Assembly: GCA_028130375.1 (NCBI GenBank)
Contig: GCA_028130375.1_3658.1
Direction: 5' to 3' (one strand)
From: a phage
Length of the DNA: 64,000 bases
Shown: positions 46 through 56,396 of the stretch, piece by piece
Position numbering within the stretch: position 1 is the stretch's first letter
Layout: each line of letters begins with the position of its first letter
Made by a program: the position numbers and the translations under genes
The notes under the pieces: generated by a model
What the model was told of the DNA's origin: nothing
The model's input: only the letters and a program-made list of their open reading frames with translations
Databases searched by the model: none

Positions 46-1371
46 ATGAGCAAAACCAAATTAGAACTTACCTGGATAGGTAAAAACGAGCGCAAAAAGT
101 TAGAGCCCCACATTTTGTTAGAAGATTCTAGCAAATCTTACCACAGCCAGAAAGTGACCGAAAACGATATTTTTGATAATAAACTGATTTTTGGAGATAA
201 CTTATTAGCATTGAAGGCGCTAGAGCAAGAGTATGCAGGCAAAGTGAAGTGTGTTTACATAGACCCACCATTCAATACCGGGAGGGCTTTTGAGCATTAC
301 GATGATAGCCTGGAGCATTCCATTTGGCTGGGCTTAATGAGGGATAGGTTAGAAATAATTCGTAATCTTCTAAGTGATGATGGGGTAATATTCGTTCACT
401 TAGATGATTGCGAAATGGCGTATTTAAAAGTTTTGATGGACGAGATTTTTGGTCGTGCAAATCAGTTAAATACCATATCGATGACCACAAATTCCCCTTC
501 GGGATTTAAGGCAACAGGAGCCACAGTTTTCTCCACAGCAAACTTTTTGCTTGTATATGCAAAAGATCGCACCCAGAAACCGCTTAACAAAATCTATATA
601 CCTAAAGGGTATGATACAGGATATAACAAATACCTATTAAACCCGGATGACCATTATAAAAATTGGACGTGGTGCGGTATTGCCGATGCGTTTGCAAAGG
701 CCAATGGCTATAAAGATGCAAAAGAAGCCAAGAAAAAACTGCCTGATACATTCGATGATGAATTAGCACAATTCGCAATTGATAATGCAGAACGTGTATT
801 TCAATCTGTTGCAATTGGTGGTGGTGCTAAAATAAAGAGAAAAGAAACTATCGAGAAGTCAAAGAAAGATAGGGATAAGGTTTATGTACATCCAAATGAG
901 GATGTTGAAGGATTTTATATCGCAAATGGTAGGCAAATGGTCTTTTACTCCAATAGGCTTTTGGAAATTGACGGTGAGATGCAACCTGCGGAACTAATAA
1001 CTGATGTTTGGACAGACATTAGTTGGAATGGAATAGCAAATGAAGGCGGCGTTAGTTTCAAAAATGGGAAAAAACCAGAAGCGCTTTTGAAGCGGATTTT
1101 CGAAATGTGCACGCGAGAAGGCGATTTGGTATTGGATTCATTCGGTGGTTCTGGAACTACTGCTGCTGTAGCTCATAAGATGAAAAGACGCTGGATCTCA
1201 ATCGAGCTAGGTGATCATTGTCATACCCATATTATTCCGCGCTTGGAAAAAGTGATCGATGGCGAAGATCAAGGTGGTATTTCTAAGTCTGTAAACTGGC
1301 AAGGTGGTGGTGGCTTCCGTTATTACAAACTTGCCCCGGCCTTAGTTGCGAAAGATAAGTCTGATCAATAA
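46..1371 (+). CDS. DNA methyltransferase, beta-class amino-MTase (N6-adenine or N4-cytosine); motif IV DPPF precedes motif I
   Basis: 441 aa; ..VYIDPPFNTG.. near N-terminus and ..DSFGGSGTTAAVA.. (FxGxG SAM-binding) near C-terminus; RBS AAGGAGAG. Confidence 0.8.
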   Translation: MSKTKLELTWIGKNERKKLEPHILLEDSSKSYHSQKVTENDIFDNKLIFGDNLLALKALEQEYAGKVKCVYIDPPFNTGRAFEHYDDSLEHSIWLGLMRDRLEIIRNLLSDDGVIFVHLDDCEMAYLKVLMDEIFGRANQLNTISMTTNSPSGFKATGATVFSTANFLLVYAKDRTQKPLNKIYIPKGYDTGYNKYLLNPDDHYKNWTWCGIADAFAKANGYKDAKEAKKKLPDTFDDELAQFAIDNAERVFQSVAIGGGAKIKRKETIEKSKKDRDKVYVHPNEDVEGFYIANGRQMVFYSNRLLEIDGEMQPAELITDVWTDISWNGIANEGGVSFKNGKKPEALLKRIFEMCTREGDLVLDSFGGSGTTAAVAHKMKRRWISIELGDHCHTHIIPRLEKVIDGEDQGGISKSVNWQGGGGFRYYKLAPALVAKDKSDQ

Positions 1372-1384
1372 AGAGTACAATCAA

Positions 1385-1690
1385 ATGATGAAACGTTATA
1401 AACCATACACTTTTGAAATCGATTTCGAACTTGACGATATGTTCACTGTGGAAGCTCAGGCAGTTGTCCAGTTGCCAGACCCAGAGTGTCGTGATTCTGA
1501 TGTTGACTATTATGGATTTAGACAGATCACTGATGTGCATGTTTACCACAACGGTGAAGAGGTGGACTTCCACAAACTGCCAAACGATATGCGCCACTCA
1601 ATTTACAAACGTGCAGCCCGTGAACTAGAGTCCTATCTTGATGCAGCGACGACAGCAGCTGCATTTGCCGAAGAAGTGGGAGGTTTCTGA
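1385..1690 (+). CDS. hypothetical protein
   Basis: ORF; first ATG after upstream stop at 1369-1371 chosen over the track start 1346. Confidence 0.45.
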   Translation: MMKRYKPYTFEIDFELDDMFTVEAQAVVQLPDPECRDSDVDYYGFRQITDVHVYHNGEEVDFHKLPNDMRHSIYKRAARELESYLDAATTAAAFAEEVGGF

Positions 1691-2085
1691 TGATTACAGA
1701 TGTGAAGATTGTCCAATACCACTTAACCAAGTTGGAAGATGCTGAGAAAGAGCTTGCAGAAGTTCTGAATAGTGGATATACTTTGCTATCATGCGCCTGC
1801 TCAGACACCTACGCTGTGTGGACACTTATCAGGAAGGAAGAGCCTGCAGGGATCTTGGTGCCAAACCCTAAGATTATTAGTGAGGTGGATGACTACCCCC
1901 AGGACGGCCTGCCAGAAGGCTGGGAAGTATGGGAAGGTGGTGAAAACCCTGCACCAGGTAAGTGGGTAAAATACAAACTACGTAGTGGTGCACAGTACGC
2001 TGACTACTCTGATGACCTAGACTGGAGTCATTCTTCACCAGGATCATCTGCAAGTTCATATGATATCGTTGCTTTTCAGGAATAA
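1690..2085 (+). CDS. hypothetical protein
   Basis: 131 aa ORF; ATG overlaps upstream stop (TGATG); GGGAGG RBS. Confidence 0.5.
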   Translation: MITDVKIVQYHLTKLEDAEKELAEVLNSGYTLLSCACSDTYAVWTLIRKEEPAGILVPNPKIISEVDDYPQDGLPEGWEVWEGGENPAPGKWVKYKLRSGAQYADYSDDLDWSHSSPGSSASSYDIVAFQE

Positions 2086-2097
2086 GGAGAGGGTGTT

Positions 2098-2580
2098 ATG
2101 TCAGATTTTATGTGGAAAGTAGGCTATGCCACTCCTGAAATGTGCGAGGCTTGCTTTGTGAAAATAGGCCGCGAGGATATCGACAAAGTGATCCTTAAGT
2201 TTCGTGATGTGGCTGTGATCGGCAACCGAGTGCTTAAGCACTTAAAGAATCTGAAGCTCACTAAAAAGAAGTTCTTCGGGCTTTTCGAAGAGAAAGTTGA
2301 TGCTTGGACCCATTGCATTCAGGAAGCTAAATCTCACTACAGTGCTATCGTTACTCCAGAACGGGTAGCTAAGATGGAAGGATTCATTAACAGCACAGAA
2401 TTTGAGTGTCTGAAAGCTGCACTCGATAGTTATCCGAAATGCCTTAAGCACTTGGACAAGTATGCAGAAAAGGATGGGGAAATGTATCTAACCCTGGACG
2501 CATATTATGAGATGCAAGAAATTTTAAATTTAGATTTGACATTGGTATCCACCGAGTATACAATAGGTATCCGGGTTTAA
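2098..2580 (+). CDS. hypothetical protein
   Basis: 160 aa ORF; RBS AAGGAGAGGG 6 nt upstream. Confidence 0.55.
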   Translation: MSDFMWKVGYATPEMCEACFVKIGREDIDKVILKFRDVAVIGNRVLKHLKNLKLTKKKFFGLFEEKVDAWTHCIQEAKSHYSAIVTPERVAKMEGFINSTEFECLKAALDSYPKCLKHLDKYAEKDGEMYLTLDAYYEMQEILNLDLTLVSTEYTIGIRV

Positions 2581-2586
2581 CACTAG

Positions 2587-2613
2587 GCCCTGCCCGAAAG
2601 GGTGGGGCTTTTT
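2587..2613 (+). terminator. intrinsic terminator (GCCCTGCCC-GAAA-GGGTGGGGC, T5)
   Basis: 9-bp stem with two G-U pairs, GNRA tetraloop, then TTTTT; identical copy at 12754-12781. Confidence 0.6.
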
Positions 2614-3396
2614 GCATTAGGAGACAGCAAATTGAAATTTATCTACAAAGAACACTACCACAAAGGTGTTGTGTGGAGTCTATTTGACGGGTCTGGTGGT
2701 GCAGTCATTGACTGGGCAAAAGCTGGGTACCTGTGCCTGTGCTTTAATGCAGAAGGCGCTGATCACGGCAGTTATGCAGAGGTGATCACCGATCATCCCA
2801 ACATTCACTATGTGGACTATTGGATTGACCCGTGGTTCCCTCAGGAAACTTTTTGCATGTATCCGGCTCCAGATTTTATTCTTGCATTTCCTCCGTGCAC
2901 GCATTTAGCGGTATCAGGTGCTGCACATTTTAAGAAAAAGCTGGCTAAGGACCCCATGATCCAAATTAATGCTGTAAAGGATGCTCGGGTTGCGGAAGAG
3001 CTGGGAGAGATTTACGATTGCCCGTGGCATGTAGAGAATCCTGTGGGTGTTATGTCCACACTGTGGCGCAAACCTGATTACCGTTTTCACCCTTCGGATT
3101 ATGGCGGGTATTTACCGGAAGATGATGTAAACCCATGGTTTCCTGAATTTATAGCTCCACGTGATGCCTATCCAAAAATAACTTGCGGCTGGATAGGTAA
3201 TGGATTTATAATCCCAGCCACAAAACCTGTCCCGCAAATAGTTGACGCGGTTAGCGGGTATTCCATGCAACACGCCAAGCTGGGTGGAAAGAGTGCAAGA
3301 ACGAAGATGATTCGAAGCCTCACACCACGTGGCTGGGCAAAAGCCGTATTCCTAGCAAACGAGCCTGTAGTAAGGAGCAGAATTAATGGGAAGTAA
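2602..3396 (+). CDS. DNA (cytosine-5)-methyltransferase-like protein, compact and divergent
   Basis: Motif I-like SLFDGSGG, motif IV-like AFPPCTHLAVSGA (PC with catalytic Cys, T replacing Q), motif VI-like VENPVG; track start is GTG inside the terminator, a TTG at 2632 behind AGGAGA may be the true start. Confidence 0.5.
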   Translation: MGLFALGDSKLKFIYKEHYHKGVVWSLFDGSGGAVIDWAKAGYLCLCFNAEGADHGSYAEVITDHPNIHYVDYWIDPWFPQETFCMYPAPDFILAFPPCTHLAVSGAAHFKKKLAKDPMIQINAVKDARVAEELGEIYDCPWHVENPVGVMSTLWRKPDYRFHPSDYGGYLPEDDVNPWFPEFIAPRDAYPKITCGWIGNGFIIPATKPVPQIVDAVSGYSMQHAKLGGKSARTKMIRSLTPRGWAKAVFLANEPVVRSRINGK

Positions 3397-5464
3397 ATTT
3401 ATGGCATCTGCATACAACCGTTTCGGTGAGCCAAACCCGAAAGCAACTAAGTATAAAAGTGGGGGAAGTGTGAAACGAGACTATCGTGATGAAAAAGAAG
3501 TTGAAACTGTAGAGACTGTTTTAGAAAATACTAAAATTGTCCCTGTCCCACAACAAAATATCGGTCTGATGGCTGCACAATATTTTGGTGTGCGATCAGC
3601 ATTGTCACAAGAAGACGGTGTGACAGTCACTGCAACATATTTCCCATATTACGACCGCTACGGAAATCTGTCCGGTTTCAAAAAGCGTGACTGGACTATT
3701 CCTAAAGAACAAAGGGGCCACTTCTCCGTTGTTGGCATCGTAAAGGCCAACTCCCAGATGTTTGGTCAAAAGCTGTGTGCATCTTCCAACAACCGTAAGC
3801 AGATTAACGTTTGTGAGGGAGAAGGTGATGTTATTGCAGCATGGCAGGCTGCATATCAGATACAAGTAAAAGGGATTCTCACCAACGCTAAAGCCCCGGC
3901 AAAGGTGAAGCAGTGGGCTAAAGAGGTCCAGGACGGGATCGACGCAGTTATCAACGGTGGTGATCTGGCAGGAAAACCCTGCCTGCCTTTTGTTGGAATT
4001 AACTGTGGATGTGCAAACGCAGTAGATACTTTTGCAAACAATGAGAAGTTTATCCGTAGCTATGGAACAGTTGTACTGGCAATGGATAACGATGCAGCTA
4101 ACGAGGTAGAGAAGCAAAAACACGTCATTAAAGGTGTTGAGGCCACGCACAATATCGCAGCATTTTTGATGGCTGATAACGTTTACCACGTAGAATACCC
4201 TGGTGAAGTAAATGACCCTGACGGGGTAAAAGATATCCGTGACATGCTGAAGGCTAAAAAGCTGGAAGATATTGTCAACATGTTCCGGCATCCTGTTAAA
4301 TATGTGCCTGATGCTGTGTCGGATTTAGAAGACTTCTCTATCGAGTCTTTGCGGAAAAAGACTTCCAACGGGGTAGATATCAGCGCAGAGTTCCCAAAAC
4401 TGCAAAAAATGCTAAAAGGCTTGCACAAAGGGACACTCGTAATGCTTACAGGGCCATCAGGGGGCGGTAAAACAACTGTAGCTAAAAAACTGGAACATTG
4501 TATTGCAAGATACCTAATGGACCCGACATGCCCGAAGGCTGATGACTATGAAGAGGATGATCGTCTATGTATGATCCATCTTGAGGAGGACCCAGAGGAA
4601 GCAATTAACTCCTTGTATGCAAACCAGTTAGGGTTTGATGTTAAAGAGTTTGTTGAAGATCCTAGCCAGTTTTTAACTGATCAAGAACACGCAGAGATTC
4701 ACCAATCATGGGCAAAAGCTGGAAAAATCAAAGTGTTCAAACATTTCGGGTCTATTCCGGTGGATGAGTTGATTACCAAGCTTAAGCAAATGGTTTGCCT
4801 GTACCATTGCCGTTATATTGTGCTGGATCACCTGTCCATGGTAATTTCAGGGCTTAATGTTAAGGATGAGCGAAAAGAACTGGACATGGCTATGACTCAG
4901 CTGGCTGCGTTTTGTAAGCAGTTTAACGTGTTTATCTTGGTGATCGCTCACCTCAAACGTACAGAGATTGTGCCTCCTAAGGACAAGGATGGTAACCCGT
5001 TACCTTTCTGGTATCCTGTGCGAAAAGAGAATTTGCGAGGATCGGCGGGGCTTGAACAGTTGAGTTGGGTAGTCATAGGTGTCGAGGCCGAAGAAATGGT
5101 GGATCGTTCTCGTGGACGTGTCCGTCTGGTAGGTCTTAAAAACCGTCCAGCAAAAACTCTAGGTATTGCTGACACTTTGGTTATGGACCCGCACACAGGT
5201 AAGTTCCATGATGCCAGTAATTGGTACTGGGACAAAGAAATGCAAATGTTTACAGACGGAGAAGGTGGGGAGGTTGTTTGGAGACCTCAAGCTATGTTTG
5301 AGGATCAGGAGCATGCAGTTGTAGAAACACCTATGGGCAAGGTTGTGGCTGATAAGGTTGTAACTCCTACTGTTAAGCCTGTTGACACGCAGGAAGACCT
5401 CCAGTACGATGATCCATCCTCTGACCAGGTCCCTGGTTTTGAGGATGATGAAACGCCTTTTTAA
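3386..5464 (+). CDS. DNA primase/helicase (T7 gp4-like: TOPRIM primase + DnaB-family helicase)
   Basis: 692 aa; TOPRIM-like CEGEGDVIAAW and VLAMDNDAANE; Walker A LTGPSGGGKTT, Walker B IVLDHLS; acidic C-terminus ..FEDDETPF; RBS AAGGAG. Confidence 0.88.
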   Translation: MGSKFMASAYNRFGEPNPKATKYKSGGSVKRDYRDEKEVETVETVLENTKIVPVPQQNIGLMAAQYFGVRSALSQEDGVTVTATYFPYYDRYGNLSGFKKRDWTIPKEQRGHFSVVGIVKANSQMFGQKLCASSNNRKQINVCEGEGDVIAAWQAAYQIQVKGILTNAKAPAKVKQWAKEVQDGIDAVINGGDLAGKPCLPFVGINCGCANAVDTFANNEKFIRSYGTVVLAMDNDAANEVEKQKHVIKGVEATHNIAAFLMADNVYHVEYPGEVNDPDGVKDIRDMLKAKKLEDIVNMFRHPVKYVPDAVSDLEDFSIESLRKKTSNGVDISAEFPKLQKMLKGLHKGTLVMLTGPSGGGKTTVAKKLEHCIARYLMDPTCPKADDYEEDDRLCMIHLEEDPEEAINSLYANQLGFDVKEFVEDPSQFLTDQEHAEIHQSWAKAGKIKVFKHFGSIPVDELITKLKQMVCLYHCRYIVLDHLSMVISGLNVKDERKELDMAMTQLAAFCKQFNVFILVIAHLKRTEIVPPKDKDGNPLPFWYPVRKENLRGSAGLEQLSWVVIGVEAEEMVDRSRGRVRLVGLKNRPAKTLGIADTLVMDPHTGKFHDASNWYWDKEMQMFTDGEGGEVVWRPQAMFEDQEHAVVETPMGKVVADKVVTPTVKPVDTQEDLQYDDPSSDQVPGFEDDETPF

Positions 5465-5522
5465 TGTTTAACAAAGAGTGGGAGGGGTAGTACAACCGCC
5501 TCCCCTTTAAGGAGAACTGTAT

Positions 5523-8300
5523 ATGAGCATGTGGTCGTTCGATTTTGAGTCATCCGGTTTGCTGGAAGACCCAGATCTTTATTATCACTGCGGTCTGTTT
5601 AAAGAGCTGAATAAGAACCGTTTTATGCTGTTCCTTCCTCTAAATGACCGCACACACTACTCCGAGGAGGATATGGAGAAGGCTAAGAACTTTATTCTGG
5701 CAAAGAAAACTCTTTATAAAGATTTTGAAGTTCGCATAGCAGATTTTTCGGAGTTGGAAGGTTGGCTCACAGGCAATTCCGACTGGTCACCAACAGCTTT
5801 GAACTGCCATAACTGCTACAGTTATGACTTTATGCTGATGGAAAGATTATCCGGTATTCATTTTGATATGTTCCGTGATCCTAAATGCATGGGGACTATC
5901 AACGACCACCAGGTTAACCTGTTTGATACGTTGGCGATGAGCCGAATCTTATGGCCTGATCGCCCTTTACCAAAAGGTTGTCCTGACTCCGTATTCAACC
6001 CGGTTACTAAGAAAATGCAGCCTGTTGGTCCTCACGGCCTTATGGCATGGGGCTACGCCCTTGGTAACCAGAAAGTTCAAATTGATGACTGGCGCGATCT
6101 TCCGTTGTGGAAGTATGTGGATCGTGTATTCGAGGACGTTATCATCCAGGAGCTGCTCTGGAAAGAGCTGGTAGCGGAATCAAAAGGTGTATTCTACGGC
6201 AAATCTGACATGCAGAACTTTATGTACGATCCTGCCAAAGAGAAGCCGAAAGGGTTCAAGAAGATCACCTGGAAGAACGCATTGCGCCGGGGTATGCTGC
6301 AACACTTCCTGATGGAGCTGCAGGCCCGTCAGGGTGTGTATTTTGACATAGATGGAGCTATTGCTTTACGTGACCGTTGCGATGCGTGGATGAAAGAAAT
6401 CGCTGATCGTGTTGAACCGCAACTACCTTTAAAAGAGCTGTCAATGTCTCAGCGGCCCAAGTTCCCTGAAAAGCCGTTTAACCAAGATGGGACAATCTCC
6501 AATAATGGTTGGAAATGGTTAAAAGATAAGCTTGGCTATCCTGTAGATATGAGCGCTTTAGAGTTCAAAGCCCCGCCTAAGCGAGCATTTACCTCTACAG
6601 GAGATGTCAGTAAGATGGGGATAAAATGGTGTGAAGAGATGGGCTGCAAAGACCCCGATAAGATGGCTGATTTCTTGAGAGGCTATATTAAGGGCACCTC
6701 CACACCACAACCTTTACCTAAAGAGCTAATGGATCAGGCAATAAGTGATCTACAGCAGAAGCGAATGCCGGACTGCAAGATACCTATGAAAATCAGCAAC
6801 CAGGACGACATTAAGCGATACCTGATCAGTGCTGGTTGGCTTCCAACAATGTGGAGAACTAAGGATGTAACTAAAGACAGCAAGAAGAAAGCTCTACCTG
6901 ATGCAGATGTTGATGCACGAGTATATGCATATATGGACGAGCTTTTAGAGTCAGAGTATTGTGACCTGATTATCAACTTCTGGAACAAAACTGATGCTAA
7001 GTTCCAGACAACCGTGCACAAGTTCCGAAGCTTTCCTAACTCCGAAAGGATTAAAAAGGAAGTATTCGGGAAAATACGTAGAAAAGCTAGGGCACTTATT
7101 ACTTCTCCGCAACTGAAAGATACGTTTGGACACCTATGCCCTAATCTTGAAAAATTGAACGGAGAGATGGCTAAAGATATCGTCTTGTGGTTATCATTGC
7201 GAAACCGCAGATCGGTCCTTGATCCAATCAAGGAGGATAAGGTTGATACTGGTCTTCTTAATCACCCACGTTTGAAGATTGACCATAAGCTTCCTGCTAA
7301 AAGTTCTGGATTAACAAACACTTCCCGACAGAAACACAGTATTTGTGCAAACATGCCTAAACCATCTCCTAAAGTGGTTATGGGTAAAGAGATGCGTAGT
7401 CTGTGGGGTGTTCCTCCAGGATACTTTGAGATCGGTATTGACGGGTCCAACTTAGAGCAGCTTATCGGGGCTTGGGGTGCCTTTGAGTTCGACAACGGCC
7501 TGTATTACGATGTTGTAAGTAACGGGGACGCACACCAAAACAATGCTGAGGCATATACAAAAGTAGCAGGTAGAGAGGTGTCTCGTAACGACGGTAAACC
7601 TATCACGTATGGGGTTATGTATGGGGCACAAAAAGATAAAGTTGCAGATATGCTGGACATCTCTCCAGAGTTGGGACAAAGGGTAATCGATGCACTCTGG
7701 GATGCCAACCCTGGTCTTAAGGGGCGTAAAGAAGATCTGGAGAAATTCTGGGAAGCAACGGGTAAGAAGTTTATCTACTCTTTTGATGGTCATGCTATCT
7801 GGACCCGATCTAAACACTCTTTACTTAATGCATACCAACAAAATGGCGGTGCATCGTTGTGTGATTTAGTTGGGATACTCATGCACCACCAAATGGTGAA
7901 GCGTGGGTGGTACGATGAAGGTGTCCGTCGTATTATTTATTACCATGACGAATATCAGCTTCAAGTCCCTGACACACCGAAGTATAAGACTGTGTACACC
8001 TTCGACACAATTGAAGAACTGGAAGCATTTAAGGCAGAACAGGAGGCCAAACTTCATGTGTTCGACGGTCATAAGTACAAAAAGGCACGCAAAGATGAGG
8101 ACGGAAACGAAGTAGTTGACAGGGACGGAAACACGGTGTACGATCCTATCCTGAACGATGACGGAAAGCTTGAGCTTATCTGGAGCCCTGTGGGTGAAAT
8201 GGTGGTGCATTGCTTCTGGCAAGCTTCTAAAATGATGGGAGTCCCGTTCCAGATCACAGGTGAATACCTGTGTGGTCGTAATTGGGGTGATTGTCACTAA
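5523..8300 (+). CDS. DNA polymerase, family A, with N-terminal 3'-5' proofreading exonuclease
   Basis: 925 aa; Exo I MWSFDFESSG; motif B ..KPITYGVMYGAQ..; motif C ..YYHDEYQ..; RBS TAAGGAG. Confidence 0.9.
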   Translation: MSMWSFDFESSGLLEDPDLYYHCGLFKELNKNRFMLFLPLNDRTHYSEEDMEKAKNFILAKKTLYKDFEVRIADFSELEGWLTGNSDWSPTALNCHNCYSYDFMLMERLSGIHFDMFRDPKCMGTINDHQVNLFDTLAMSRILWPDRPLPKGCPDSVFNPVTKKMQPVGPHGLMAWGYALGNQKVQIDDWRDLPLWKYVDRVFEDVIIQELLWKELVAESKGVFYGKSDMQNFMYDPAKEKPKGFKKITWKNALRRGMLQHFLMELQARQGVYFDIDGAIALRDRCDAWMKEIADRVEPQLPLKELSMSQRPKFPEKPFNQDGTISNNGWKWLKDKLGYPVDMSALEFKAPPKRAFTSTGDVSKMGIKWCEEMGCKDPDKMADFLRGYIKGTSTPQPLPKELMDQAISDLQQKRMPDCKIPMKISNQDDIKRYLISAGWLPTMWRTKDVTKDSKKKALPDADVDARVYAYMDELLESEYCDLIINFWNKTDAKFQTTVHKFRSFPNSERIKKEVFGKIRRKARALITSPQLKDTFGHLCPNLEKLNGEMAKDIVLWLSLRNRRSVLDPIKEDKVDTGLLNHPRLKIDHKLPAKSSGLTNTSRQKHSICANMPKPSPKVVMGKEMRSLWGVPPGYFEIGIDGSNLEQLIGAWGAFEFDNGLYYDVVSNGDAHQNNAEAYTKVAGREVSRNDGKPITYGVMYGAQKDKVADMLDISPELGQRVIDALWDANPGLKGRKEDLEKFWEATGKKFIYSFDGHAIWTRSKHSLLNAYQQNGGASLCDLVGILMHHQMVKRGWYDEGVRRIIYYHDEYQLQVPDTPKYKTVYTFDTIEELEAFKAEQEAKLHVFDGHKYKKARKDEDGNEVVDRDGNTVYDPILNDDGKLELIWSPVGEMVVHCFWQASKMMGVPFQITGEYLCGRNWGDCH

Positions 8301-8349
8301 TGTAAACTATCAACACATGGAAGTGTTGTTGAGCAAAGAGGAGACTTTT

Positions 8350-8667: not shown

Positions 8668-8891
8668 CGACTTTGGTTAAAGCTACCTTTGTAGAAGAAA
8701 AGATGACAGACCTGTCATTCTTTAAAGAAGGAAAGACCTACGAGGTTTATTACGATAAAGCTCGTGCAAACAAGATGATTAAAGACGAGGAAGGGATTGC
8801 CTGGTTTATCTCCCATCTGGCAAACGGTGAGTATCATATCTACGGAACCACCCTGCTTGCCAAGTTTGTAGCTGTTGAAGAGGACCTATGA
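8664..8891 (+). CDS. hypothetical protein
   Basis: 75 aa ORF; RBS AAGGAG; ATGA overlap with upstream stop. Confidence 0.5.
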   Translation: MTTLVKATFVEEKMTDLSFFKEGKTYEVYYDKARANKMIKDEEGIAWFISHLANGEYHIYGTTLLAKFVAVEEDL

Positions 8892-9795: not shown

Positions 9796-9798
9796 TAC

Positions 9799-40048: not shown

Positions 40049-40582
40049 CTACAAATGGTCGCTGAGGGTGTCAAGAAAATTATCCCGTTCTTTCTCAGAG
40101 TTTTCATGTGTGTAGCTGAAAAACATATCGAGAATAACCTTATTGATATATTCCAGCTCCTCTGTGTTCAGATGCTTAGCAGGATCTACAATGACATCCC
40201 AAATATCATACAGACCACACTCATGATACCCATAACGCCACTCAATTGTCAAGCTGAGCGGCAAATCTTTACCTTCACAAACAACCTTCCATCTACATAT
40301 GTTGGTATCTGGTCGTACCTGTGCACGGTACACCTGCACAAAATCCAATTTGAATTTGAGGTACTCGTCATACAATTTAAGCACAAAGCTCTCGATTTGT
40401 GGAGACACTTTTGCAGCAAACTGTGCGTATTTGTACTTGCACTGGATGATCTTTCTGCGTTTTGCAGTTAAATTTTTTGCCGCCAGTTGTTCTTCAGTGT
40501 ATCTCCACCTACGATCAACAAACGCAACAGGGTCTTTGTCCCCATAGAGGTCTTCCCAGTTAATCAGAAGCATACCTGTCAC
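40049..40582 (-). CDS. hypothetical protein
   Basis: 177 aa ORF. Confidence 0.5.
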   Translation of the reverse strand: MTGMLLINWEDLYGDKDPVAFVDRRWRYTEEQLAAKNLTAKRRKIIQCKYKYAQFAAKVSPQIESFVLKLYDEYLKFKLDFVQVYRAQVRPDTNICRWKVVCEGKDLPLSLTIEWRYGYHECGLYDIWDVIVDPAKHLNTEELEYINKVILDMFFSYTHENSEKERDNFLDTLSDHL

Positions 40583-41520: not shown

Positions 41521-41835
41521 CTACCAGGTTACTGTCAAGTAGGCAACCGTATTATTTTTCTCTGGGGAGATGCCAACAACATCTACCTGCAGACCTCCTG
41601 CCCTTAAATCTCCAACAATGTGCGGGAAGTAATCTGAGAGATGCGAGGGTAGATTTATCGAAAATCCGCACCCCAGAAAGCCTGCTAACGCTTTATTTTG
41701 TATCTCCCCTACAATCGCATCATAAATGGAGTTAAGCTCGTCAGGGAGCGTTACAGGGCGTTTTAGCGCTAGCTGGTGTAATTTGTCCTTAGCACTCATT
41801 TTCATTTCAGGTCTACCTCTGGGGGTGCCAACCAC
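41521..41835 (-). CDS. hypothetical protein
   Basis: 104 aa ORF. Confidence 0.45.
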   Translation of the reverse strand: MVGTPRGRPEMKMSAKDKLHQLALKRPVTLPDELNSIYDAIVGEIQNKALAGFLGCGFSINLPSHLSDYFPHIVGDLRAGGLQVDVVGISPEKNNTVAYLTVTW

Positions 41836-42335
41836 ATAAATGGCGGCAAGTCTAAACGGTTTTTCTTATCCCACACAAAATATGCATATGCTTGCCCGTC
41901 AGTTCTGCCGTTTGATTGAAATGATGGACGCTTAGATATTGTGATCACAGTAGTAGGTGCATTATCAAGCCACCATTCAAATCTGGCTTTGCTTTCCAGA
42001 AAATTAAGACGCAAAAGCATAATAACTACGTCAGCATCTTTCAACGCCTTGTCTACAAACTCACGAGCCAGGCTGTATGGTGGGTTGGTGATAATACAGT
42101 CAACATGGTTGTATTCTGTATTCAGATAGTCAACACCTTCTTGTATTTCTCCCCATGCAGATCCTAACGGCATACGGGAGTAGAACACACCTGAGGCACT
42201 ATTCCTGCAAGGCTCTAAGTAGGTCCAGTCTTCTGGGAACGGAATAAGGTCATACAGCCCTTCTGCACACCACTCCGGTGTCACATACTCATCGTAGGCG
42301 TTACGTTGTTCATCAGGTTTTCTAGCACAAGTCAT
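41802..42335 (-). CDS. small DNA N6-adenine methyltransferase (NPPY motif)
   Basis: 177 aa; ..YLEPCRNSASGVF.. (motif I-like) and ..DCIITNPPYSLA.. (motif IV). Confidence 0.65.
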   Translation of the reverse strand: MTCARKPDEQRNAYDEYVTPEWCAEGLYDLIPFPEDWTYLEPCRNSASGVFYSRMPLGSAWGEIQEGVDYLNTEYNHVDCIITNPPYSLAREFVDKALKDADVVIMLLRLNFLESKARFEWWLDNAPTTVITISKRPSFQSNGRTDGQAYAYFVWDKKNRLDLPPFMWLAPPEVDLK

Positions 42336-48033: not shown

Positions 48034-48308
48034 TTTTTCTCTCCAAAACCATTCTTAACAAAAGAGATGAAATCGTCGGCACCGCCTATATGGACACTGT
48101 CAAGATCGCTTTCTAAGAAGATCTGCGGCAACGTTCTGGGGACAATTGGACTGCACTTCTCAATAAGCTCTTCTTTTGTGTAGCCCTCGCCAAGTGTCTT
48201 ATATACAAAAGGCAGACCTTTGCTGATTGCAAATTCTTTTGCTCTGACACAATGTGGGCAGTTATCCTTACCGTAAATGATGATGAAAAAAGATTTTTCG
48301 CAGCTCAT
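48030..48308 (-). CDS. glutaredoxin/thioredoxin-like protein (CPHC active site)
   Basis: 92 aa; ..YGKDNCPHCVRAK.. and ..TLPQIF..IGGADDF.. typical of the glutaredoxin fold; between nrdB and nrdD. Confidence 0.7.
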   Translation of the reverse strand: MSCEKSFFIIIYGKDNCPHCVRAKEFAISKGLPFVYKTLGEGYTKEELIEKCSPIVPRTLPQIFLESDLDSVHIGGADDFISFVKNGFGEKK

Positions 48309-48311
48309 ATA

Positions 48312-49400: not shown

Positions 49401-49417
49401 TATTCTACCTCTAAAAT

Positions 49418-49431
49418 GGGGCCGAAGCCCC
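49418..49431 (-). terminator. terminator-like hairpin between nrdA and nrdB (GGGGC-UUCG-GCCCC)
   Basis: GC stem with UUCG-type loop and weak T-tract on the minus strand; may act as an attenuator. Confidence 0.35.
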
Positions 49432-49438
49432 TTTAAAA

Positions 49439-51754: not shown

Positions 51755-51981
51755 TTTGCTTCCTCCACTTCACTAACGTATTTATCAAGGCAGGTATCAG
51801 TATCTTGCTGGATAAAAGTATCCTCTTCTACAGAGATATTTATAATTTTACCTGTATACTCGTCATAATAGACATCATCATACATTTTAATATCGTTTGT
51901 CAGGCCATTGAACCAAAGCCAACCAACATACTCTGCCCGACTTGCAAAACCAAGATCCTTCCACTTGGAGTTATGACTCAT
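51751..51981 (-). CDS. hypothetical protein
   Basis: ATG 51981 behind AAGGTGGTG chosen over the longer track ORF. Confidence 0.45.
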   Translation of the reverse strand: MSHNSKWKDLGFASRAEYVGWLWFNGLTNDIKMYDDVYYDEYTGKIINISVEEDTFIQQDTDTCLDKYVSEVEEAN

Positions 51982-51991
51982 CTTCACCACC

Positions 51992-52465
51992 TTAGCTTTC
52001 AATACCGAATAATTTTTCCAGGCGATGCAGATCTTCAAAATTGAAAGGTTCATCAACAATATGAATATCTTCAGCCTTTTCAGATTGTTTTGTATACTTT
52101 CTTACATTAACACGATCCTCTACAGGGATATCATACGGGAGATCTTGAACAAGCATTGCCTCACCAGGTGCTTTATCTACATCTAAAATATCTACACCGT
52201 TATACATTTGTGGGTATCTAAAGTCTGCACGCATGACACCAGCAAATACATCTGCCTTTCGATAATGTGTTGGCTTATTTTTGCATCGAACGTTTTTTCC
52301 ACGAAGAACATCAATACTTTTTAAATCAAACCCTACGGCAAAGAGTGCAGCTCGGAGACCGTTTCGTGTGCGAACGTTAAACCCGGGGACGGTAGATAGA
52401 AAATCTAAAGTAACTGAAATAAATGTCTTTTTAGGAATCATAACATTACTCATATCTGTCTCCAT
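51992..52465 (-). CDS. hypothetical protein
   Basis: Start moved to ATG 52465 (SD GGTGAG) because a promoter -10 box abuts the track start at 52492. Confidence 0.4.
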   Translation of the reverse strand: METDMSNVMIPKKTFISVTLDFLSTVPGFNVRTRNGLRAALFAVGFDLKSIDVLRGKNVRCKNKPTHYRKADVFAGVMRADFRYPQMYNGVDILDVDKAPGEAMLVQDLPYDIPVEDRVNVRKYTKQSEKAEDIHIVDEPFNFEDLHRLEKLFGIES

Positions 52466-52493
52466 TTCTGGCTCACCAACAAAGTGAGCCATT

Positions 52494-52522
52494 ATTATAG
52501 ATTATCTAATACTATTAGTCAA
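52494..52522 (-). promoter_or_regulatory. sigma70-like promoter on minus strand (TTGACT-17-TATAAT)
   Basis: AGTCAA at 52517-52522 and ATTATA at 52494-52499 on the plus strand. Confidence 0.5.
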
Positions 52523-52551
52523 CACAAAAGTTACCTATCGCTGTGATAGGA

Positions 52552-53535
52552 TTAACCTTTCACGAAGTGGTTATTAAGCAGTTGTCTGTGCTGAACCCAC
52601 CCACAAAAGTTGGCAGACCAGAATTTACCATCACGGTCTTGATGGGTTACACCTTCCTGCCAAGTACTGATGTCTTGTGTGATTTCACATGAAGACAGGT
52701 AGTAGTTTAAACGTTCCATTGCGTTATCGTGATCCATAGGTGTTGCCTGGTGCTCGTAAGGGCTTGCATGAATACGATCCCCACCAATCAATTTTTTAGC
52801 CACACTATCTGCCTTTTCAAACGTGCTGTCAATATTTCGATAAGATACTTGTGCACAGCAACTAGCACTGATAGACAGAGCTTCTTTAGTATCGAGAATG
52901 CAGAGCTTTCCTTCTGTGTCACGTACAGCGTAGTTAAACTCTCCGTCCAAATAAACGTGCTCTACATATGGGGTGTGCCATTGACCCGGTTTAAGGATTT
53001 CAGGAGTGCTATTCTCAAGAGCCTCCCACATACAATTAGCTAACATCTGAATCGTAGGATCCGCATCGTGCCAGCAACGGAGGTGGAAAAAATTATTCCA
53101 CTCGGTGCTTGTTACAACTGTTTTCATGCGCTGGAACGGCTCCACTAAGCGGTTACATACTTGCTTATGGTAACCAGCAAGGGCGAACTTCTCTGCATGC
53201 CAAGCGGCGTTTTTTGCAGCTTCTTTCCAAAACTCTTCAGGAGTTAGCTCCATGTCAGTGTACTCTACACGGATCTTTTGATCGTGTTCCCCACCATCTT
53301 CCATTCCTCGCTTATTTACACCGAAGCGAACTGGCATTGCCGGATTCTCCACAATCTGTTGCAGCATCTTGCCGACAGGTACTGCACGGGAAGACATGGC
53401 GTTTCGGCTGAACACTCGGTGCGTCATAAGCTCTGAGTGAATAATTCGAGGATACTCTAGTTCAAAAGTGGTGATACGCTTACCTTTCTCGGAAATGCTG
53501 TCAGCAATAATCTTTGCAGTGCACAGTTTTAGCAT
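52552..53535 (-). CDS. ThyX-like (flavin-dependent thymidylate synthase family) protein, divergent
   Basis: 327 aa; ..TTFELEYPRIIHSELMTHRVFSRNAMSSRA.. aligns by eye with the ThyX core ..[30 protein letters not shown].. but RHR is THR and SxRY is SSRA. Confidence 0.45.
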   Translation of the reverse strand: MLKLCTAKIIADSISEKGKRITTFELEYPRIIHSELMTHRVFSRNAMSSRAVPVGKMLQQIVENPAMPVRFGVNKRGMEDGGEHDQKIRVEYTDMELTPEEFWKEAAKNAAWHAEKFALAGYHKQVCNRLVEPFQRMKTVVTSTEWNNFFHLRCWHDADPTIQMLANCMWEALENSTPEILKPGQWHTPYVEHVYLDGEFNYAVRDTEGKLCILDTKEALSISASCCAQVSYRNIDSTFEKADSVAKKLIGGDRIHASPYEHQATPMDHDNAMERLNYYLSSCEITQDISTWQEGVTHQDRDGKFWSANFCGWVQHRQLLNNHFVKG

Positions 53536-53735
53536 TATTTAGCTCTCCTTGTTTTAATTTTGGAAATTTCGTCTGGGTTTATGTTGGCCTTAAATGCAAG
53601 GTATCTGTTGAACATGTCAGAGCACATATCTTGGGTGATCCTAGAGGCATACACTAGCTTACCTCCTAGATCATACACCTCTAGCCAGTCACCGTATCTG
53701 ACTACAGGATCGCCACCTTTAGAACATCTGCCCAT
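53535..53735 (-). CDS. hypothetical protein
   Basis: 66 aa ORF. Confidence 0.45.
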   Translation of the reverse strand: MGRCSKGGDPVVRYGDWLEVYDLGGKLVYASRITQDMCSDMFNRYLAFKANINPDEISKIKTRRAK

Positions 53736-53736
53736 T

Positions 53737-54330
53737 TCAAATACCTTCTAAAAATTTTCCTATTTTATACCAGCTATTAGCGGTATAGTCAACACTGACC
53801 TTTAACTCCTCGAATTGCTCATAAGGCGTATCTTTTAGGATTTTAATAACTTCAGGTCGTGAAGCGAATTGGTTCAGGTATTCATGCCTGTCGTCAATTA
53901 TAACATCTACAGCCACATTCCCTTTGAAATGTGTGGCGTAGAAGCCGTGGCCCTGGGTGTGATCGTCCAGATCCATAAAATCACTGGTCCAACGCTTTAA
54001 GAACCTTGATTTAGATGCAAGGTGACCTTTCTTGCATACCGAGATAAATGCAAGCTTGTGACCACGAGCCACCAAATCTTTCATAACCTCAATAGCCCCC
54101 TCTTCAGGCTTAAGGAAGTCGTAGAGGAACGGATCACTCCAGAAATCAAAAGGTCCTATGATGTTTTCTTTGGGACGATCAGGCCAATACTTTGACAGAT
54201 CGTAATACATTAACCCATTAGAAGGTTTAGCTACTGTCTTACTGGCTGGACCATACAAACGCTCCAACCACTCCCACCATGCTGTTCCTGAATCTACCAG
54301 TGTCAGATCTACATCAATTCCGATTAACAT
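53737..54330 (-). CDS. HAD-superfamily hydrolase, putative 5'(3')-deoxyribonucleotidase
   Basis: 197 aa; N-terminal MLIGIDVDLTLVD (DxDxT motif I). Confidence 0.55.
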   Translation of the reverse strand: MLIGIDVDLTLVDSGTAWWEWLERLYGPASKTVAKPSNGLMYYDLSKYWPDRPKENIIGPFDFWSDPFLYDFLKPEEGAIEVMKDLVARGHKLAFISVCKKGHLASKSRFLKRWTSDFMDLDDHTQGHGFYATHFKGNVAVDVIIDDRHEYLNQFASRPEVIKILKDTPYEQFEELKVSVDYTANSWYKIGKFLEGI

Positions 54331-54938
54331 TCTTCTTGGGCCTCTTTAGCATCAATATACTTGCACACAATCTCCGATGCACACTCCCAAGGTGCACCTT
54401 CAGGGTTTACAACATCAAACTCAACCCCTTTTATTCCGTTCTTTTCCAGACTTAGATAGGTTCTGGAATCATTTCCCCAGTCATATCCTACACGGTGAAT
54501 ACGGAACAACAACAGATCTCCACCTGTGCTGTATGCGTACTCGCTAAGGCATGCCAGCTCCTCTTTGAATCCCCCATCGGAGTAAACAATAACCCCTTTA
54601 CCTTCAGGGAAATCTTTCTTCAAAGATGCGACTGCGGCTTTACCGAAAGCATCTTCACCAAAGATAGGTTTAATCAGATTTTCACTACAATGGATCATCC
54701 ATTCTCGCGGAGAAACATGCTTGCCGTCTATCATTAAGAAAGGGCAAGGCTCTTCTTTGTAGTGGCGGTCATAAAGTGCATTCCAGAGTTGAGGAGTTAC
54801 ACCAGCTGCCTTAATTGCCACACTGAAGAGCATTTCCTTAACCTCACGGTGGTGTGAGTTAGGAATAGCTTCCAACAAGAGATCTGCAATGTGATCCTTA
54901 CCACTGCTGGGTGGGGCGTTAAGAACAATAATATCCAT
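54324..54938 (-). CDS. deoxynucleoside monophosphate kinase (T4 gp1-like)
   Basis: 204 aa; N-terminal P-loop MDIIVLNAPPSSGKDHIADLL resembles T4 dNMP kinase MKLIFLSGVKRSGKDTTADFI. Confidence 0.65.
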   Translation of the reverse strand: MDIIVLNAPPSSGKDHIADLLLEAIPNSHHREVKEMLFSVAIKAAGVTPQLWNALYDRHYKEEPCPFLMIDGKHVSPREWMIHCSENLIKPIFGEDAFGKAAVASLKKDFPEGKGVIVYSDGGFKEELACLSEYAYSTGGDLLLFRIHRVGYDWGNDSRTYLSLEKNGIKGVEFDVVNPEGAPWECASEIVCKYIDAKEAQEEC

Positions 54939-55141
54939 TAAAAACCTCCGTGGTATTCTTCAACTGCATCAATAATACTTTTACACTTATCTACCAGCTC
55001 GTTAGCCACTACAGCATCGTCTTCCCAAACAGCCTCCTCAATCTGATCAAGCAATGATCGCATCTTACTCATCATTTCTGGGATAAAGTTTTCTGAAAAG
55101 CTGTCTGGAATTGTTAACTCTAGTGTCATTTCGGTCTCCAA
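54938..55141 (-). CDS. hypothetical acidic protein
   Basis: 67 aa ORF. Confidence 0.45.
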   Translation of the reverse strand: METEMTLELTIPDSFSENFIPEMMSKMRSLLDQIEEAVWEDDAVVANELVDKCKSIIDAVEEYHGGF

Positions 55142-55156
55142 TCATACTATGCGTTA

Positions 55157-55615
55157 TTAGAAGTTTGTTTTTACACGTCCCTTCTCATCAACCTCGTTGT
55201 TAGCTAAAAGCGTTACAAAGTCTGTGAAACGAACATGAAGAACCCTTTTCTTATCAAGGTATCCTAAAGCCACCCCTGAGAAATTTAGCATCAAAGGGGC
55301 TAAAGAAGCTCTGGCACTGAAATGCTGTTGTTCTACCCTTCCAACACCCTTAGTGTAGGATGGGTTAAGATTGTAAGTTCTGAATCCCAGTTTTGTTGGA
55401 GCTTTAGAATTAAAAACGACTTTATAGCGTTTCTTACTCAACTTATGCTCCAGGATAAGCATTCCCTTATCACCTTTGATAAGTTGAAAATCTGTAAAGT
55501 GCTCTTTTAAGACGAAAGGTAGTGCCAGTCCCATCGCCTGTCCTCTTTGTACCGCTGTCTCACCAAAAGCTTTTGCATCAGTAAGTTCTTTGGTCAAGTC
55601 TATGCTTTTGATCAT
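55157..55615 (-). CDS. hypothetical protein
   Basis: 152 aa ORF. Confidence 0.5.
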   Translation of the reverse strand: MIKSIDLTKELTDAKAFGETAVQRGQAMGLALPFVLKEHFTDFQLIKGDKGMLILEHKLSKKRYKVVFNSKAPTKLGFRTYNLNPSYTKGVGRVEQQHFSARASLAPLMLNFSGVALGYLDKKRVLHVRFTDFVTLLANNEVDEKGRVKTNF

Positions 55616-56396
55616 ACCTGGTCTCCAAAATGTATTGTAGTTCTTTCTTGCCTATACTCTTCATTCCAGCAGTCTTACCTGCTTCTTCTTGAAAAGAAGA
55701 ATAGCATTCAGCAAACACTCTGTCAACACCGTTAACTAAAGATTTTATGAAATATGTTGATTCTTCAGATTTTGGGTCATCATCCCCCAATACTTTTCCA
55801 GCATTATACCCAACACGTCTTACACAGAAGTCGTAGTCATCTGGTGTGCTAAAAGAAAATAACTTATTCTCTCCAATCTCTACAGGATCCCTATTGCACG
55901 CCTTTTTCTCCCAAATTTGGAAAACACATGGCACGTCATAAGGTTTGCCATTAAGTAAAAACGAATTCTTAGGGCACCTTTCGCTGTAGACAAGGTGCAT
56001 CGACATGTCCAGTTTGTTTGCAAAAAATATTTTTTCAAATGTCCGTGGCAAGATGAAGGCTATAGCCCCTCCAAGCTCTAGCAATGATGCACAATGGTTA
56101 AAGAATTTGCAAGCTAAGGATGAATTCTTGCCAAATGGTGGGTTACCTATGAAGACATCTGCCTTGGGATGCACCTCCAAGAAGTTTGCCTGAATGCACG
56201 GTGTTGGTCCTTCAAATTCAGGATCTGGTACTAAATCGTACGACAGTATCTCTGAAAATAGTTTTGAAAAAGAACCCCTTCCAGCAGAAGGCTCAACGTA
56301 TGCACAATTCCCATACTTATCTTTTACTTTACCAACAAGATATTCTGCATACTCAGGGTTTGTGTAGTATTTGTCGTTGGACTCTTTCTTGCTCAA
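55578..56396 (-). CDS. DNA N6-adenine methyltransferase, gamma-class (motif I then NPPF)
   Basis: ..YVEPSAGRGSF.. (motif I) then ..FIGNPPFGKN.. (motif IV); no in-frame ATG near the 5' end, TTG at 56396 behind GGAGG proposed. Confidence 0.6.
   Translation of the reverse strand: MSKKESNDKYYTNPEYAEYLVGKVKDKYGNCAYVEPSAGRGSFSKLFSEILSYDLVPDPEFEGPTPCIQANFLEVHPKADVFIGNPPFGKNSSLACKFFNHCASLLELGGAIAFILPRTFEKIFFANKLDMSMHLVYSERCPKNSFLLNGKPYDVPCVFQIWEKKACNRDPVEIGENKLFSFSTPDDYDFCVRRVGYNAGKVLGDDDPKSEESTYFIKSLVNGVDRVFAECYSSFQEEAGKTAGMKSIGKKELQYILETRYDQKHRLDQRTY

Follow-up and report, generated by a model that had tools for sequence, protein, structure and literature searches.

For one of the enzymes considered here (MT3 below), the closest described relative comes from phage WalterGehring (Bas51). 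Its product bas51_0176 forms m6A in GATC, is toxic when over-expressed and triggers the retrons Asa1 and Squ1, and the Bas51 escape mutations D69G, D79G and T83P all cause loss of function (PMC12548924). Nanopore sequencing called 6mA at 1405 GATC adenines in the wild type and at 35 in the T83P mutant; the corresponding counts for GTAC were 509 and 511. GATC and GTAC are the only m6A motifs published for Bas51, together with 349 “other” 6mA calls. In the absence of a retron, the titre of T83P was at most 2-3-fold below that of the wild type. On the cytosine side, the Dcm-like enzyme of phage K42 was shown by LC-MS to raise 5mC in msDNA and to trigger retron Ec86, and neither effect was seen with a C82A/E128A/K175A/K176A mutant (bioRxiv 10.1101/2023.08.16.553469). 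K42 and KarlJaspers share 95.4% genome identity, and that the K42 enzyme targets CCWGG was assumed by analogy with host Dcm. A different cytosine chemistry is represented by CmoX (PDB 8yf3), a phage DNA cytosine C5-carboxymethyltransferase with an SPPC motif, Arg350 and a link to a phage CmoA (PMC12783734).

Four methyltransferase genes in an rV5-like phage

The DNA analysed here, a stretch of 64,000 nucleotides (contig GCA_028130375.1_3658.1, referred to below as the window), belongs to a Vequintavirus, an E. coli phage of the rV5 group, and is 99.6-99.9% identical to Bas51 and its relatives. A first-pass annotation had claimed four methyltransferase-like open reading frames of three classes. 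All four were found where it had placed them, and the class count was right, with one beta-class enzyme (MT1), one C5 enzyme (MT2) and two gamma-class enzymes (MT3 and MT4). MT1, MT2, MT3 and MT4 differ from their Bas51 counterparts by 0, 0, 1 and 2 residues, respectively, and the GenBank annotation of Bas51 holds exactly these four methyltransferases, each already labelled as such. In the whole Bas51 genome, the amino-methyltransferase motif IV is carried by MT1, MT3 and MT4 only, and no further (D/N/S)PP(Y/F/W/H) frame was found among open reading frames of at least 100 aa. At 90% protein identity or more, MT2, MT3 and MT4 are present in about 117-122 phage records, essentially every rV5-like phage detected.

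The finding of four genes is real, yet largely ordinary, as the genes are already in public records and one of them comes with experimental GATC methylation. Only the origin of MT1 and the assignment of GTAC to MT4 are new here, and the latter is one that we infer. These four stand-alone, SAM-dependent DNA methyltransferases are the whole complement of an rV5-like Vequintavirus, and the model that we propose is that each of them places one separate mark on newly replicated phage DNA.

MT3 methylates GATC

MT3 (positions 41802-42335, minus strand) encodes a minimal gamma-class N6-adenine methyltransferase of 177 aa that has no separate target-recognition domain. It carries its catalytic motif NPPY at residues 84-87 and matches phrog_799 (E 8e-67). 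Neither of the phage Dam profiles reached its cut-off (PF05869, 19.2 bits for a cut-off of 28.1; TIGR01712, 16.1 for a cut-off of 97), and the Pfam match to EcoRI_methylase was also below cut-off. MT3 acts like a Dam, yet it is not a member of that family by profile. It is one residue (V174A) apart from bas51_0176, annotated as “putative N6 adenine methyltransferase,” the two being essentially one gene in sister isolates. As positions D69, D79 and T83 fit MT3 only, MT3 is the Bas51 enzyme of PMC12548924.

By our own count, GATC occurs 703 times in the Bas51 genome, giving 1406 adenines, of which 1405 were called methylated in the wild type. MT3 methylates the GATC adenine at essentially every site, and the host Dam is unable to replace it during infection. 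The methylation calling that the first-pass annotation had proposed as a check was already published, for 6mA, in this near-identical phage. The small titre difference of the T83P mutant indicates that MT3 is dispensable in the laboratory.

MT4 and the GTAC mark

MT4 (positions 55578-56396, minus strand) starts at a TTG behind GGAGG and encodes a gamma-class N6-adenine methyltransferase of 272 aa, of the kind found in Type II restriction-modification systems. Its motifs DKYYT (X), EPSAGRGSF (I) and GNPPFG (IV, NPPF) follow each other in that order and are invariant in the homologue alignment, and the protein matches phrog_5172 (E 4e-129) and PADLOC MTase_II (E 4e-34). It is recognised by neither Pfam nor NCBIfam, the Pfam Eco57I match (E 0.019) being under the cut-off. 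MT4 could be aligned with M.BseCI, MmeI and M.TaqI over 228-250 of its 272 residues. With M.TaqI and M.BseCI (PADLOC MTase_II PDLC03255/03256) it shares the X-I-IV order, NPPF and 228-236 structurally aligned residues, but it is only 15-18% identical to them, is 272 aa long and is an orphan in a phage. A REase_II-like frame partners the bacterial homologues of MT4 in 24 of 80 loci, and MT4 probably derives from the methylase of such a Type II restriction-modification pair. The partner family (~215 aa) had no Pfam, NCBIfam or PDB match, and an hmmsearch with this family against the six-frame translation of the window gave no match, so that no cognate REase lies next to MT4.

The Bas51 genome offers 516 GTAC adenines. 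The 509 methylated in the wild type and 511 in T83P indicate that GTm6AC is fully penetrant and independent of MT3. E. coli K-12 is not known to possess a methylase for GTAC. The recognition sites known for Type III systems are not 4-bp palindromes; they are asymmetric, and one strand is methylated. Because MT1, MT3 and MT4 are the sole candidates, because the mark is independent of MT3 and because MT1 would be expected to recognise an asymmetric site, MT4 is by elimination the most likely writer of GTm6AC.

MT1, a captured Type III mod gene

MT1 (positions 46-1371, plus strand) encodes a beta-class N6-adenine methyltransferase of 441 aa, resembling a C-terminally truncated Type III Mod. Motif IV (DPPF, residues 73-76) precedes motif I (FGGSG, about residues 366-370). 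The protein, which is identical to bas51_0070, matches Pfam PF01555 (N6_N4_Mtase, E 4e-42) and PADLOC MTase_III (PDLC03636, E 1.5e-205, profile positions 2-444 of 575), and its PDB relatives are the Mod proteins of H. pylori and EcoP15I (entries 6k0w, E 1e-28, and 4zcf, E 2e-24). It has the beta-class core of a Mod and is not full length, with 441 of 568 residues and the C-terminal ~127 absent as a result of a small deletion and a frameshift. No Res was found in the window or upstream. The helicase upstream of MT1 is Dda/PIF1-like.

The gene lies in a host-derived cassette (positions 33-1380, no strand assigned) that is homologous to the 1.35 kb at the 5' end of a Type III mod gene from E. coli. 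The cassette aligns with positions 8987-10349 of L098 at 94.2% identity (blastn), with about 95% DNA identity to mod, and of 5426 complete E. coli genomes, 24 have the mod gene at 95% identity. Compared with the E. coli Mod WP_213054361.1 (APEC E16002), MT1 shows 12 amino-acid differences over 431 codons and is identical over residues 238-357. In E. coli, the full-length Mod (E 7e-285) has a Res as its neighbor (PADLOC REase_III, E 9e-191). Unlike the chromosomal Mod, MT1 ends early, has no Res neighbor and sits in the phage replication module, where the cassette is a presence/absence insertion: in about 31 of 117 records of related phages the alignment begins only at window position 1382/1383, and phage navn has an empty site with clean junctions. 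Judged from these alignments, the phage has captured the first 439 codons of the E. coli Type III mod gene, and MT1 is this copy, truncated at the C terminus.

The captured stretch keeps both catalytic motifs and the region between them, which harbours the target-recognition region in enzymes of this class and has hardly changed. MT1 should therefore methylate the site recognised by its parent Type III system and thereby blind the system. The C-terminal ~127 Mod residues that it lacks might be needed for activity.

MT2, a compact Dcm-like C5 methyltransferase

MT2 (positions 2632-3396, plus strand) is predicted to be a compact Dcm-like C5-cytosine methyltransferase of 254 aa, counted from a TTG at 2632. 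The mechanically called frame begins at a GTG at 2602 and has 264 aa, and its numbering is used for the motifs. Among 30 family members, P97, P98 and C99 of motif IV (FPPC99T) and E145-N146-P147 of motif VI (an ENP variant) are invariant, and G30, S31 and G32 of motif I (FDGSGG) are at least 90% conserved. RDAYPK192 is VIII-like and R238-S-LTPRGWA is X-like. The protein has the three-dimensional fold of C5 methyltransferases. Curated profiles did not recognise it (no PF00145 at E ≤ 1, no NCBIfam and no PADLOC match), and a precomputed PF00145 match accompanies only 3 of the 120 homologues listed. The shortness of MT2 is explained by its membership of a large family of phage enzymes that are Dcm-like and compact, at least 3,549 proteins in all.

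The Dcm-like protein of KarlJaspers (bas06_0055) is 54% identical to MT2 over its full length (E 2e-86). The K42/KarlJaspers enzyme and MT2 share the compact architecture, a DNMT3-like fold and the residues C82, E128 and K175, but K176 is Ile in MT2, and MT2 lies beside a primase/helicase gene in a 137-kb myovirus whereas its counterpart belongs to a T1-like siphovirus. Identity to the catalytic domain of DNMT3A/3B is 14%, with a non-significant profile E of 0.08, and the regulatory domains are absent; we do not claim an evolutionary link. By analogy with the K42 enzyme, MT2 is probably a C5-cytosine methyltransferase making 5mC, and it would act by Cys attack, methyl transfer and beta-elimination through the conserved Pro-Cys and Glu-Asn-Pro motifs. 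The earlier suspicion that so short a protein might fall outside the ordinary m5C methylases is right only about the architecture, which is unusually compact, DNMT3-like and missed by curated profile libraries. As to the chemistry it finds no support, given the 5mC made by the 54%-identical K42 enzyme.

Restriction and retrons

No restriction-endonuclease-like neighbor was found for any of the four genes. The absence of a nuclease partner for all of MT1-MT4 bears out the first-pass annotation, which had called them probable orphans with no evident restriction endonuclease partner. Their bacterial homologues do adjoin nucleases, a Type III Res for MT1 and a Type II REase for MT4. The anti-restriction or epigenetic role also suggested for the set is plausible site by site, and MT1 fits self-protection against one Type III system. 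It does not hold as broad protection: when six restriction systems were tried in the BASEL phenotyping, Vequintavirinae proved “exceptionally susceptible” to them. Two of the activities are also documented liabilities, as they trigger retrons. Sensitivity to all six means that any protection is narrow, not broad. The likely benefit would be site-specific protection from matching restriction enzymes in natural hosts, and the documented cost arises when retron msDNA methylated by such enzymes triggers abortive-infection retrons. Taken as a whole (the identity of the four enzymes, the mark of each, and site-specific protection set against a retron cost), we regard this explanation as very probably correct.

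Alternative explanations

Loss of the last ~127 Mod residues by deletion and frameshift, the quarter of related phages that manage without MT1 and the absence of a third reported adenine motif in Bas51 DNA could all indicate that MT1 is what is left of a captured host gene and no longer works. This is rather improbable, as every catalytic motif is intact and the comparison with E. coli mod (45 synonymous and 13 non-synonymous differences) gives a dN/dS of 0.067 at a dS of 0.19, a value not easily explained if the gene had been decaying neutrally along the phage branch. Bacterial loci also hold a Mod of ~440 aa or one divided into 452 + 139 aa, which makes the truncation point look like a domain boundary. 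The assignments might also be reversed, with MT1 writing GTm6AC and MT4 leaving no DNA motif that can be detected in virion DNA, being perhaps inactive in K-12, acting on RNA or another substrate, or duplicating another mark. We find this unlikely because MT1 is so few residues from a bona fide Type III Mod, a class whose sites are not palindromic, and because MT4 aligns over most of its length with DNA methylases and has bacterial homologues that occupy methylase-plus-REase operons. Least probable by far is that the group which MT2 transfers is a different one (carboxymethyl from Cx-SAM, for example, as with CmoX) or that its substrate is not DNA, given the LC-MS result for K42. A CmoX assignment would call for SPPC, an Arg at the HhaI Asn304 position and a phage CmoA, which CmoX usually has beside it; the motif in MT2 is FPPC, and the Bas51 annotation lists no CmoA.

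The marks might also serve mainly to manage the phage's own DNA (avoidance of MutH nicking, timing of replication or packaging, gene regulation) rather than to evade restriction. Dam in phage P1 is a precedent for such management. GATC is not depleted (observed/expected 0.98) and is methylated almost to the last adenine, the host Dam evidently fails to do the job in T83P, MT2, MT3 and MT4 are kept by essentially all rV5-like phages, and these phages remain highly restriction-sensitive. However, point mutants without GATC methylation keep their titres close to that of the wild type, the accessory MT1 cassette was copied from a restriction system and makes sense only as counter-restriction, and among 4-bp palindromes GTAC ranks second in depletion (0.59), as is usual under restriction pressure. 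We therefore doubt that DNA management is the main role and favor site-specific protection.

Implications

For discovery the result adds little: the genes were annotated, MT3 was characterised and so was the family of MT2. It does narrow the writer of the second fully penetrant mark of the published Bas51 methylome, GTAC, to two genes, one of them favored, and MT1 shows cleanly how a lytic phage can take over the modification subunit from a Type III system of its host, with natural phages available both with and without the cassette. We see an even chance for the fuller reading in which MT4 writes GTm6AC at every GTAC, its bacterial partner belongs to a new GTAC-type Type II family and MT1 is an active shield. 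If true, this would be the first function for the uncurated phrog_5172 family, which has no Pfam or NCBIfam model, and the undescribed ~215-aa PD-(D/E)xK-like nuclease with the MT4 homologues would form a new GTAC-type Type II restriction-modification family. MT1 would guard against a single rare Type III system of E. coli, and its activity would explain part of the 349 unassigned 6mA calls.

Phage methyltransferases cut both ways, as a shield against restriction that is nevertheless sensed by retrons. Phages of the rV5 type are widely used against E. coli O157, and this double effect matters when such phages are chosen for biocontrol or therapy.

Four methyltransferase genes in an rV5-like phage

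All four methyltransferase-like ORFs proposed by the first-pass annotation are present in the window; we refer to them, in order, as MT1 to MT4. The first 6 kb of the window and the region 41-44 kb are 90-99.9% identical to ~120 phage records, nearly all of them Escherichia phages of the genus Vequintavirus (rV5-like), with WalterGehring (Bas51, MZ501111) being the closest (99.9% across 1-2700). The curated Bas51 annotation already contains all four genes, with bas51_0070, bas51_0176 and bas51_0200 each described as a "putative N6 adenine methyltransferase" and bas51_0074 as a "Dcm-like C5 cytosine methyltransferase". MT1 to MT4 of the window differ by 0, 0, 1 and 2 residues from bas51_0070, bas51_0074, bas51_0176 and bas51_0200, respectively. 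No further methyltransferase is annotated in the Bas51 genome, and the (D/N/S)PP(Y/F/W/H) motif occurs in only three Bas51 ORFs of at least 100 aa, all among the four. The four-methyltransferase observation is essentially already known. The additions made here are modest: MT1 can be traced to a host gene and sits in a cassette, and two candidates, MT4 and MT1, are left for the GTAC writer. Methylation goes unmentioned in the paper on the original rV5 genome, and our literature search for a Vequintavirus methylome or a phage GTAC m6A enzyme returned nothing beyond PMC12548924.

Two side observations concern the relatives. In WalterGehring and EmilHeitz, the genes for primase/helicase and DNA polymerase are separated by an additional gene, annotated as "putative homing endonuclease", which is absent from the window at about 5465-5600 (MZ501111 69933-70667), where the match falls into two pieces. 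Around 16-20 "Campylobacter phage" records (MG065635, MG065653, MG065674 and others; stated host C. jejuni) match rV5-like phages of E. coli at 96-99.8% identity throughout the window, and look mislabelled or derived from contaminating coliphages.

MT3 methylates GATC

MT3 (41802-42335, minus strand) has an NPPY motif and a strong phage-family match, with curated Pfam matches below threshold only; by score (19.2 bits, cut-off 28.1), it is not a member of the Pfam phage Dam family. Its role is solved by published experiment: all Bas51 escapers of retrons Asa1 and Squ1 had changes in "the N6 adenine methyltransferase", and D69G, D79G and T83P, rebuilt in clean backgrounds, abolished defence (PMC12548924). 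MT3 has D, D and T at residues 69, 79 and 83, with NPPY starting right after T83, and position 83 is not T in the translations of MT1 or MT4. Nanopore sequencing called 6mA at 1405 GATC and 509 GTAC positions in wild-type Bas51, and at 35 and 511 in the T83P mutant (PMC12548924). The whole Bas51 genome, assembled from fetched pieces, holds 703 GATC sites (1406 adenines) and 258 GTAC sites (516 adenines), so that both motifs are methylated almost completely. MT3 acts like a Dam, and GATC methylation requires it despite the presence of host Dam.

With only 35 of the 1406 GATC adenines methylated in T83P, the Dam enzyme of the E. coli host adds almost nothing to Bas51 DNA methylation during infection, a point without comment in PMC12548924 (the window itself has 351 GATC sites). 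Calls of 6mA outside GATC and GTAC went from 576 in the wild type to 349 in the mutant (PMC12548924, S4 Table). Some 230 non-canonical sites thus seem to be methylated by MT3, and the remaining ~349 calls may be noise or may mark the site of MT1, the truncated Type III Mod. Located 1.2 kb from MT3, an ORF at 40049-40573 (minus strand) is, by its length and offset, a candidate counterpart of the Bas51 "putative glycosidase" (bas51_0171); an R87* premature stop in bas51_0171 contributes to retron Asa1 escape (PMC12548924).

MT4 as the likely GTAC writer

MT4 (55578-56396, minus strand) has an NPPF motif, a strong phage-family match and a Type II methylase profile match (E 4e-34), with curated Pfam below threshold only. 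Its start at 56396, a TTG after GGAGG, had been placed correctly in the first-pass annotation. Motifs X, I and IV are invariant in the family and the structure model is a confident one, with a pLDDT of 92.3; a precomputed PF26055 label on some homologues was not reproduced with a local Pfam copy. Directly upstream of the ribosome-binding site, a G+C-rich hairpin followed by a T run (56403-56425, minus strand) resembles a terminator and would separate MT4 from the upstream transcription unit.

In bacteria, 24 of the 80 loci with MT4 homologues have a conserved ORF of ~215 aa immediately downstream (L015 1845-2498 and 23 further loci among L020-L086). This family matches a PADLOC Type II restriction endonuclease profile (E down to 5e-15), gave no match in Pfam, NCBIfam or PDB, and shares the blocks Q-x-HGK-x-FE, FD, PTSIK and LSDAR. 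The family probably represents a Type II restriction endonuclease that has not been described before. R.PabI is a GTAC-specific glycosylase, and was considered as the partner, but was rejected given the lack of Pfam, NCBIfam or PDB matches. From this pairing, we take MT4 to derive from a Type II restriction-modification methylase.

The GTm6AC methylation of Bas51 is independent of MT3, and E. coli K-12 is not known to have a GTAC methylase, which leaves only MT1 and MT4 as candidates. As MT1 is near-identical to a Type III Mod, a class whose known sites are asymmetric, MT4 is the likelier writer of the two. On this reasoning, we consider it fairly likely that MT4 writes GTm6AC in Bas51. Among the 4-bp palindromes of the Bas51 genome, only CTAG is more depleted than GTAC (observed/expected 0.59 for GTAC), and GATC is not depleted (0.98).

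MT2 belongs to a compact family of Dcm-like methyltransferases

The first-pass annotation had called the MT2 ORF with a GTG start at 2602 and suggested that so short a protein may not be an ordinary m5C methylase. The ORF is present (2632-3396, plus strand), but the 2602 start lies inside a terminator hairpin, and TTG 2632, which follows an AGGAGA ribosome-binding site, is the start in public records. That terminator-like hairpin (2586-2614, plus strand; G+C-rich, then a T run), directly upstream of the ribosome-binding site, would separate MT2 from the upstream transcription unit.

MT2 matches phrog_757 only, with no match in Pfam, NCBIfam or PADLOC, and its PDB profile matches are weak and solely to motifs I-IV of DNMT3B. 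A homology search recovered 3,549 relatives, mostly of 225-260 aa, and by tblastn 1,506 of 50,697 phage records contain a member, among them T1-like, Dhillonvirus-like, rV5-like and other phages; a lambdoid prophage also has one in its nin region. MT2 is therefore short because the whole family is short. P-P-C, E-N-P, R-D-x-Y-x-K and R-S-L-x-P-R are invariant in the family alignment, so that PCT for PCQ and ENP for ENV are family traits and not decay.

The closest experimental evidence comes from phage K42, a relative of KarlJaspers at 95.4% genome identity, whose 711-bp "Dcm-like" gene is the trigger of retron Ec86; the authors modelled the protein on DNMT3A, and its expression gave more 5mC in msDNA by LC-MS, an increase not seen with the C82A/E128A/K175A/K176A mutant (bioRxiv 10.1101/2023.08.16.553469). 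KarlJaspers bas06_0055 is 54% identical to MT2 over the full length (E 2e-86), and MT2 keeps C82, E128 and K175 of the K42/KarlJaspers enzyme whereas K176 is replaced by Ile. Given this compact family and the 54%-identical relative, the doubt about the C5 enzyme is unfounded, and MT2 probably makes 5mC as well. The CCWGG specificity of K42 was assumed by analogy with host Dcm and then supported solely by msDNA site mutation (bioRxiv 10.1101/2023.08.16.553469). Motif statistics cannot assign methyltransferase targets: CCWGG shows mild depletion against a Markov model (229 observed, about 331 expected), yet enrichment relative to base composition.

Two other roles were considered and rejected. 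CmoX-type carboxymethyl transferases require SPPC and Arg350, usually with a phage CmoA; MT2 carries FPPC instead, and the annotation lists no CmoA. M.AquI-type enzymes are split methylases with a separate recognition subunit, and no conserved partner was apparent in a non-exhaustive survey of rV5, KarlJaspers and a lambdoid prophage, where the neighbours vary (Dam, NinG and RusA in the prophage).

MT1, a probable capture of a host Type III mod gene

MT1 (46-1371, plus strand) is a clear PF01555 protein matching the Type III Mod profile (E 1.5e-205). Outside phages, its closest relative (96% identity) is a 567-aa protein of E. coli annotated as "site-specific DNA-methyltransferase", whose gene is 94-95% identical to window 33-1380 over its first 1.35 kb and is present in 24 of 5,426 complete E. 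coli genomes. PacBio-sequenced strains with this Mod include 2014C-3011 and CFSAN004176. Downstream lies a 912-aa protein matching the Type III Res profile (E 9e-191), the pair sitting within a defence island with DrmD-like, AbiD and AbiU/AIPR genes. In the APEC E16002 chromosome (L098 2919-13464), where the mod-res pair is QQA28_RS04500 and QQA28_RS04505, the island neighbours of the donor system are a mads1-like HTH gene, a DrmD-like SNF2 helicase, AbiD and an AIPR/AbiU protein; IS66 remnants lie next to the system.

MT1 and the E. coli Mod differ at 12 amino acids over 431 codons, with none at residues 238-357, and MT1 ends early through a small deletion and frameshift. Bacterial Mod forms of ~440 aa, or split into 452 + 139 aa upstream of Res, make the truncation point look like a domain boundary. 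The dN/dS of 0.067 (dS 0.19) points to ongoing selection. In about 31 of 117 related phage records, precisely window 1-1382 is missing; in one of them, navn, the two phage ORFs flanking the site abut directly, and short stretches of microhomology at the junctions surround the ATG of the downstream ORF. We infer from these comparisons that MT1 is a captured host gene, with the host-to-phage direction suggested by three features: MT1 is truncated, it occurs patchily among phages, and full-length relatives (60-75% identity) are widespread in bacteria. Mod alone is an active methylase in classical Type III systems. MT1 is predicted to methylate the phage's own DNA at the recognition site of the donor system.

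The insertion remodelled the start codon and upstream ribosome-binding region of the 100-aa ORF directly 3' of the cassette (1388-1690, plus strand; phrog_4240, unknown function), which weakly matches phrog_1573, labelled "DNA methyltransferase" (E 1e-5).

Protection and cost

No restriction partner was found with PHROGs and Pfam in the ORFs flanking all four genes or in the helicase upstream of MT1, and the HMM of the MT4-associated endonuclease family had no match in the six-frame window, in agreement with the proposed orphan status. A cost of carrying these methylases is documented, since retrons Asa1 and Squ1 respond to MT3 (PMC12548924) and retron Ec86 is triggered by the MT2 family (bioRxiv 10.1101/2023.08.16.553469). 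In the BASEL study, Vequintavirinae were described as "exceptionally susceptible" to the six restriction systems used there, none of which recognises GATC or GTAC alone, going by the sites named there. The anti-restriction role first proposed thus holds as a probably site-specific one, and the susceptibility of these phages suggests that their methylases protect narrowly, site-specifically at best.
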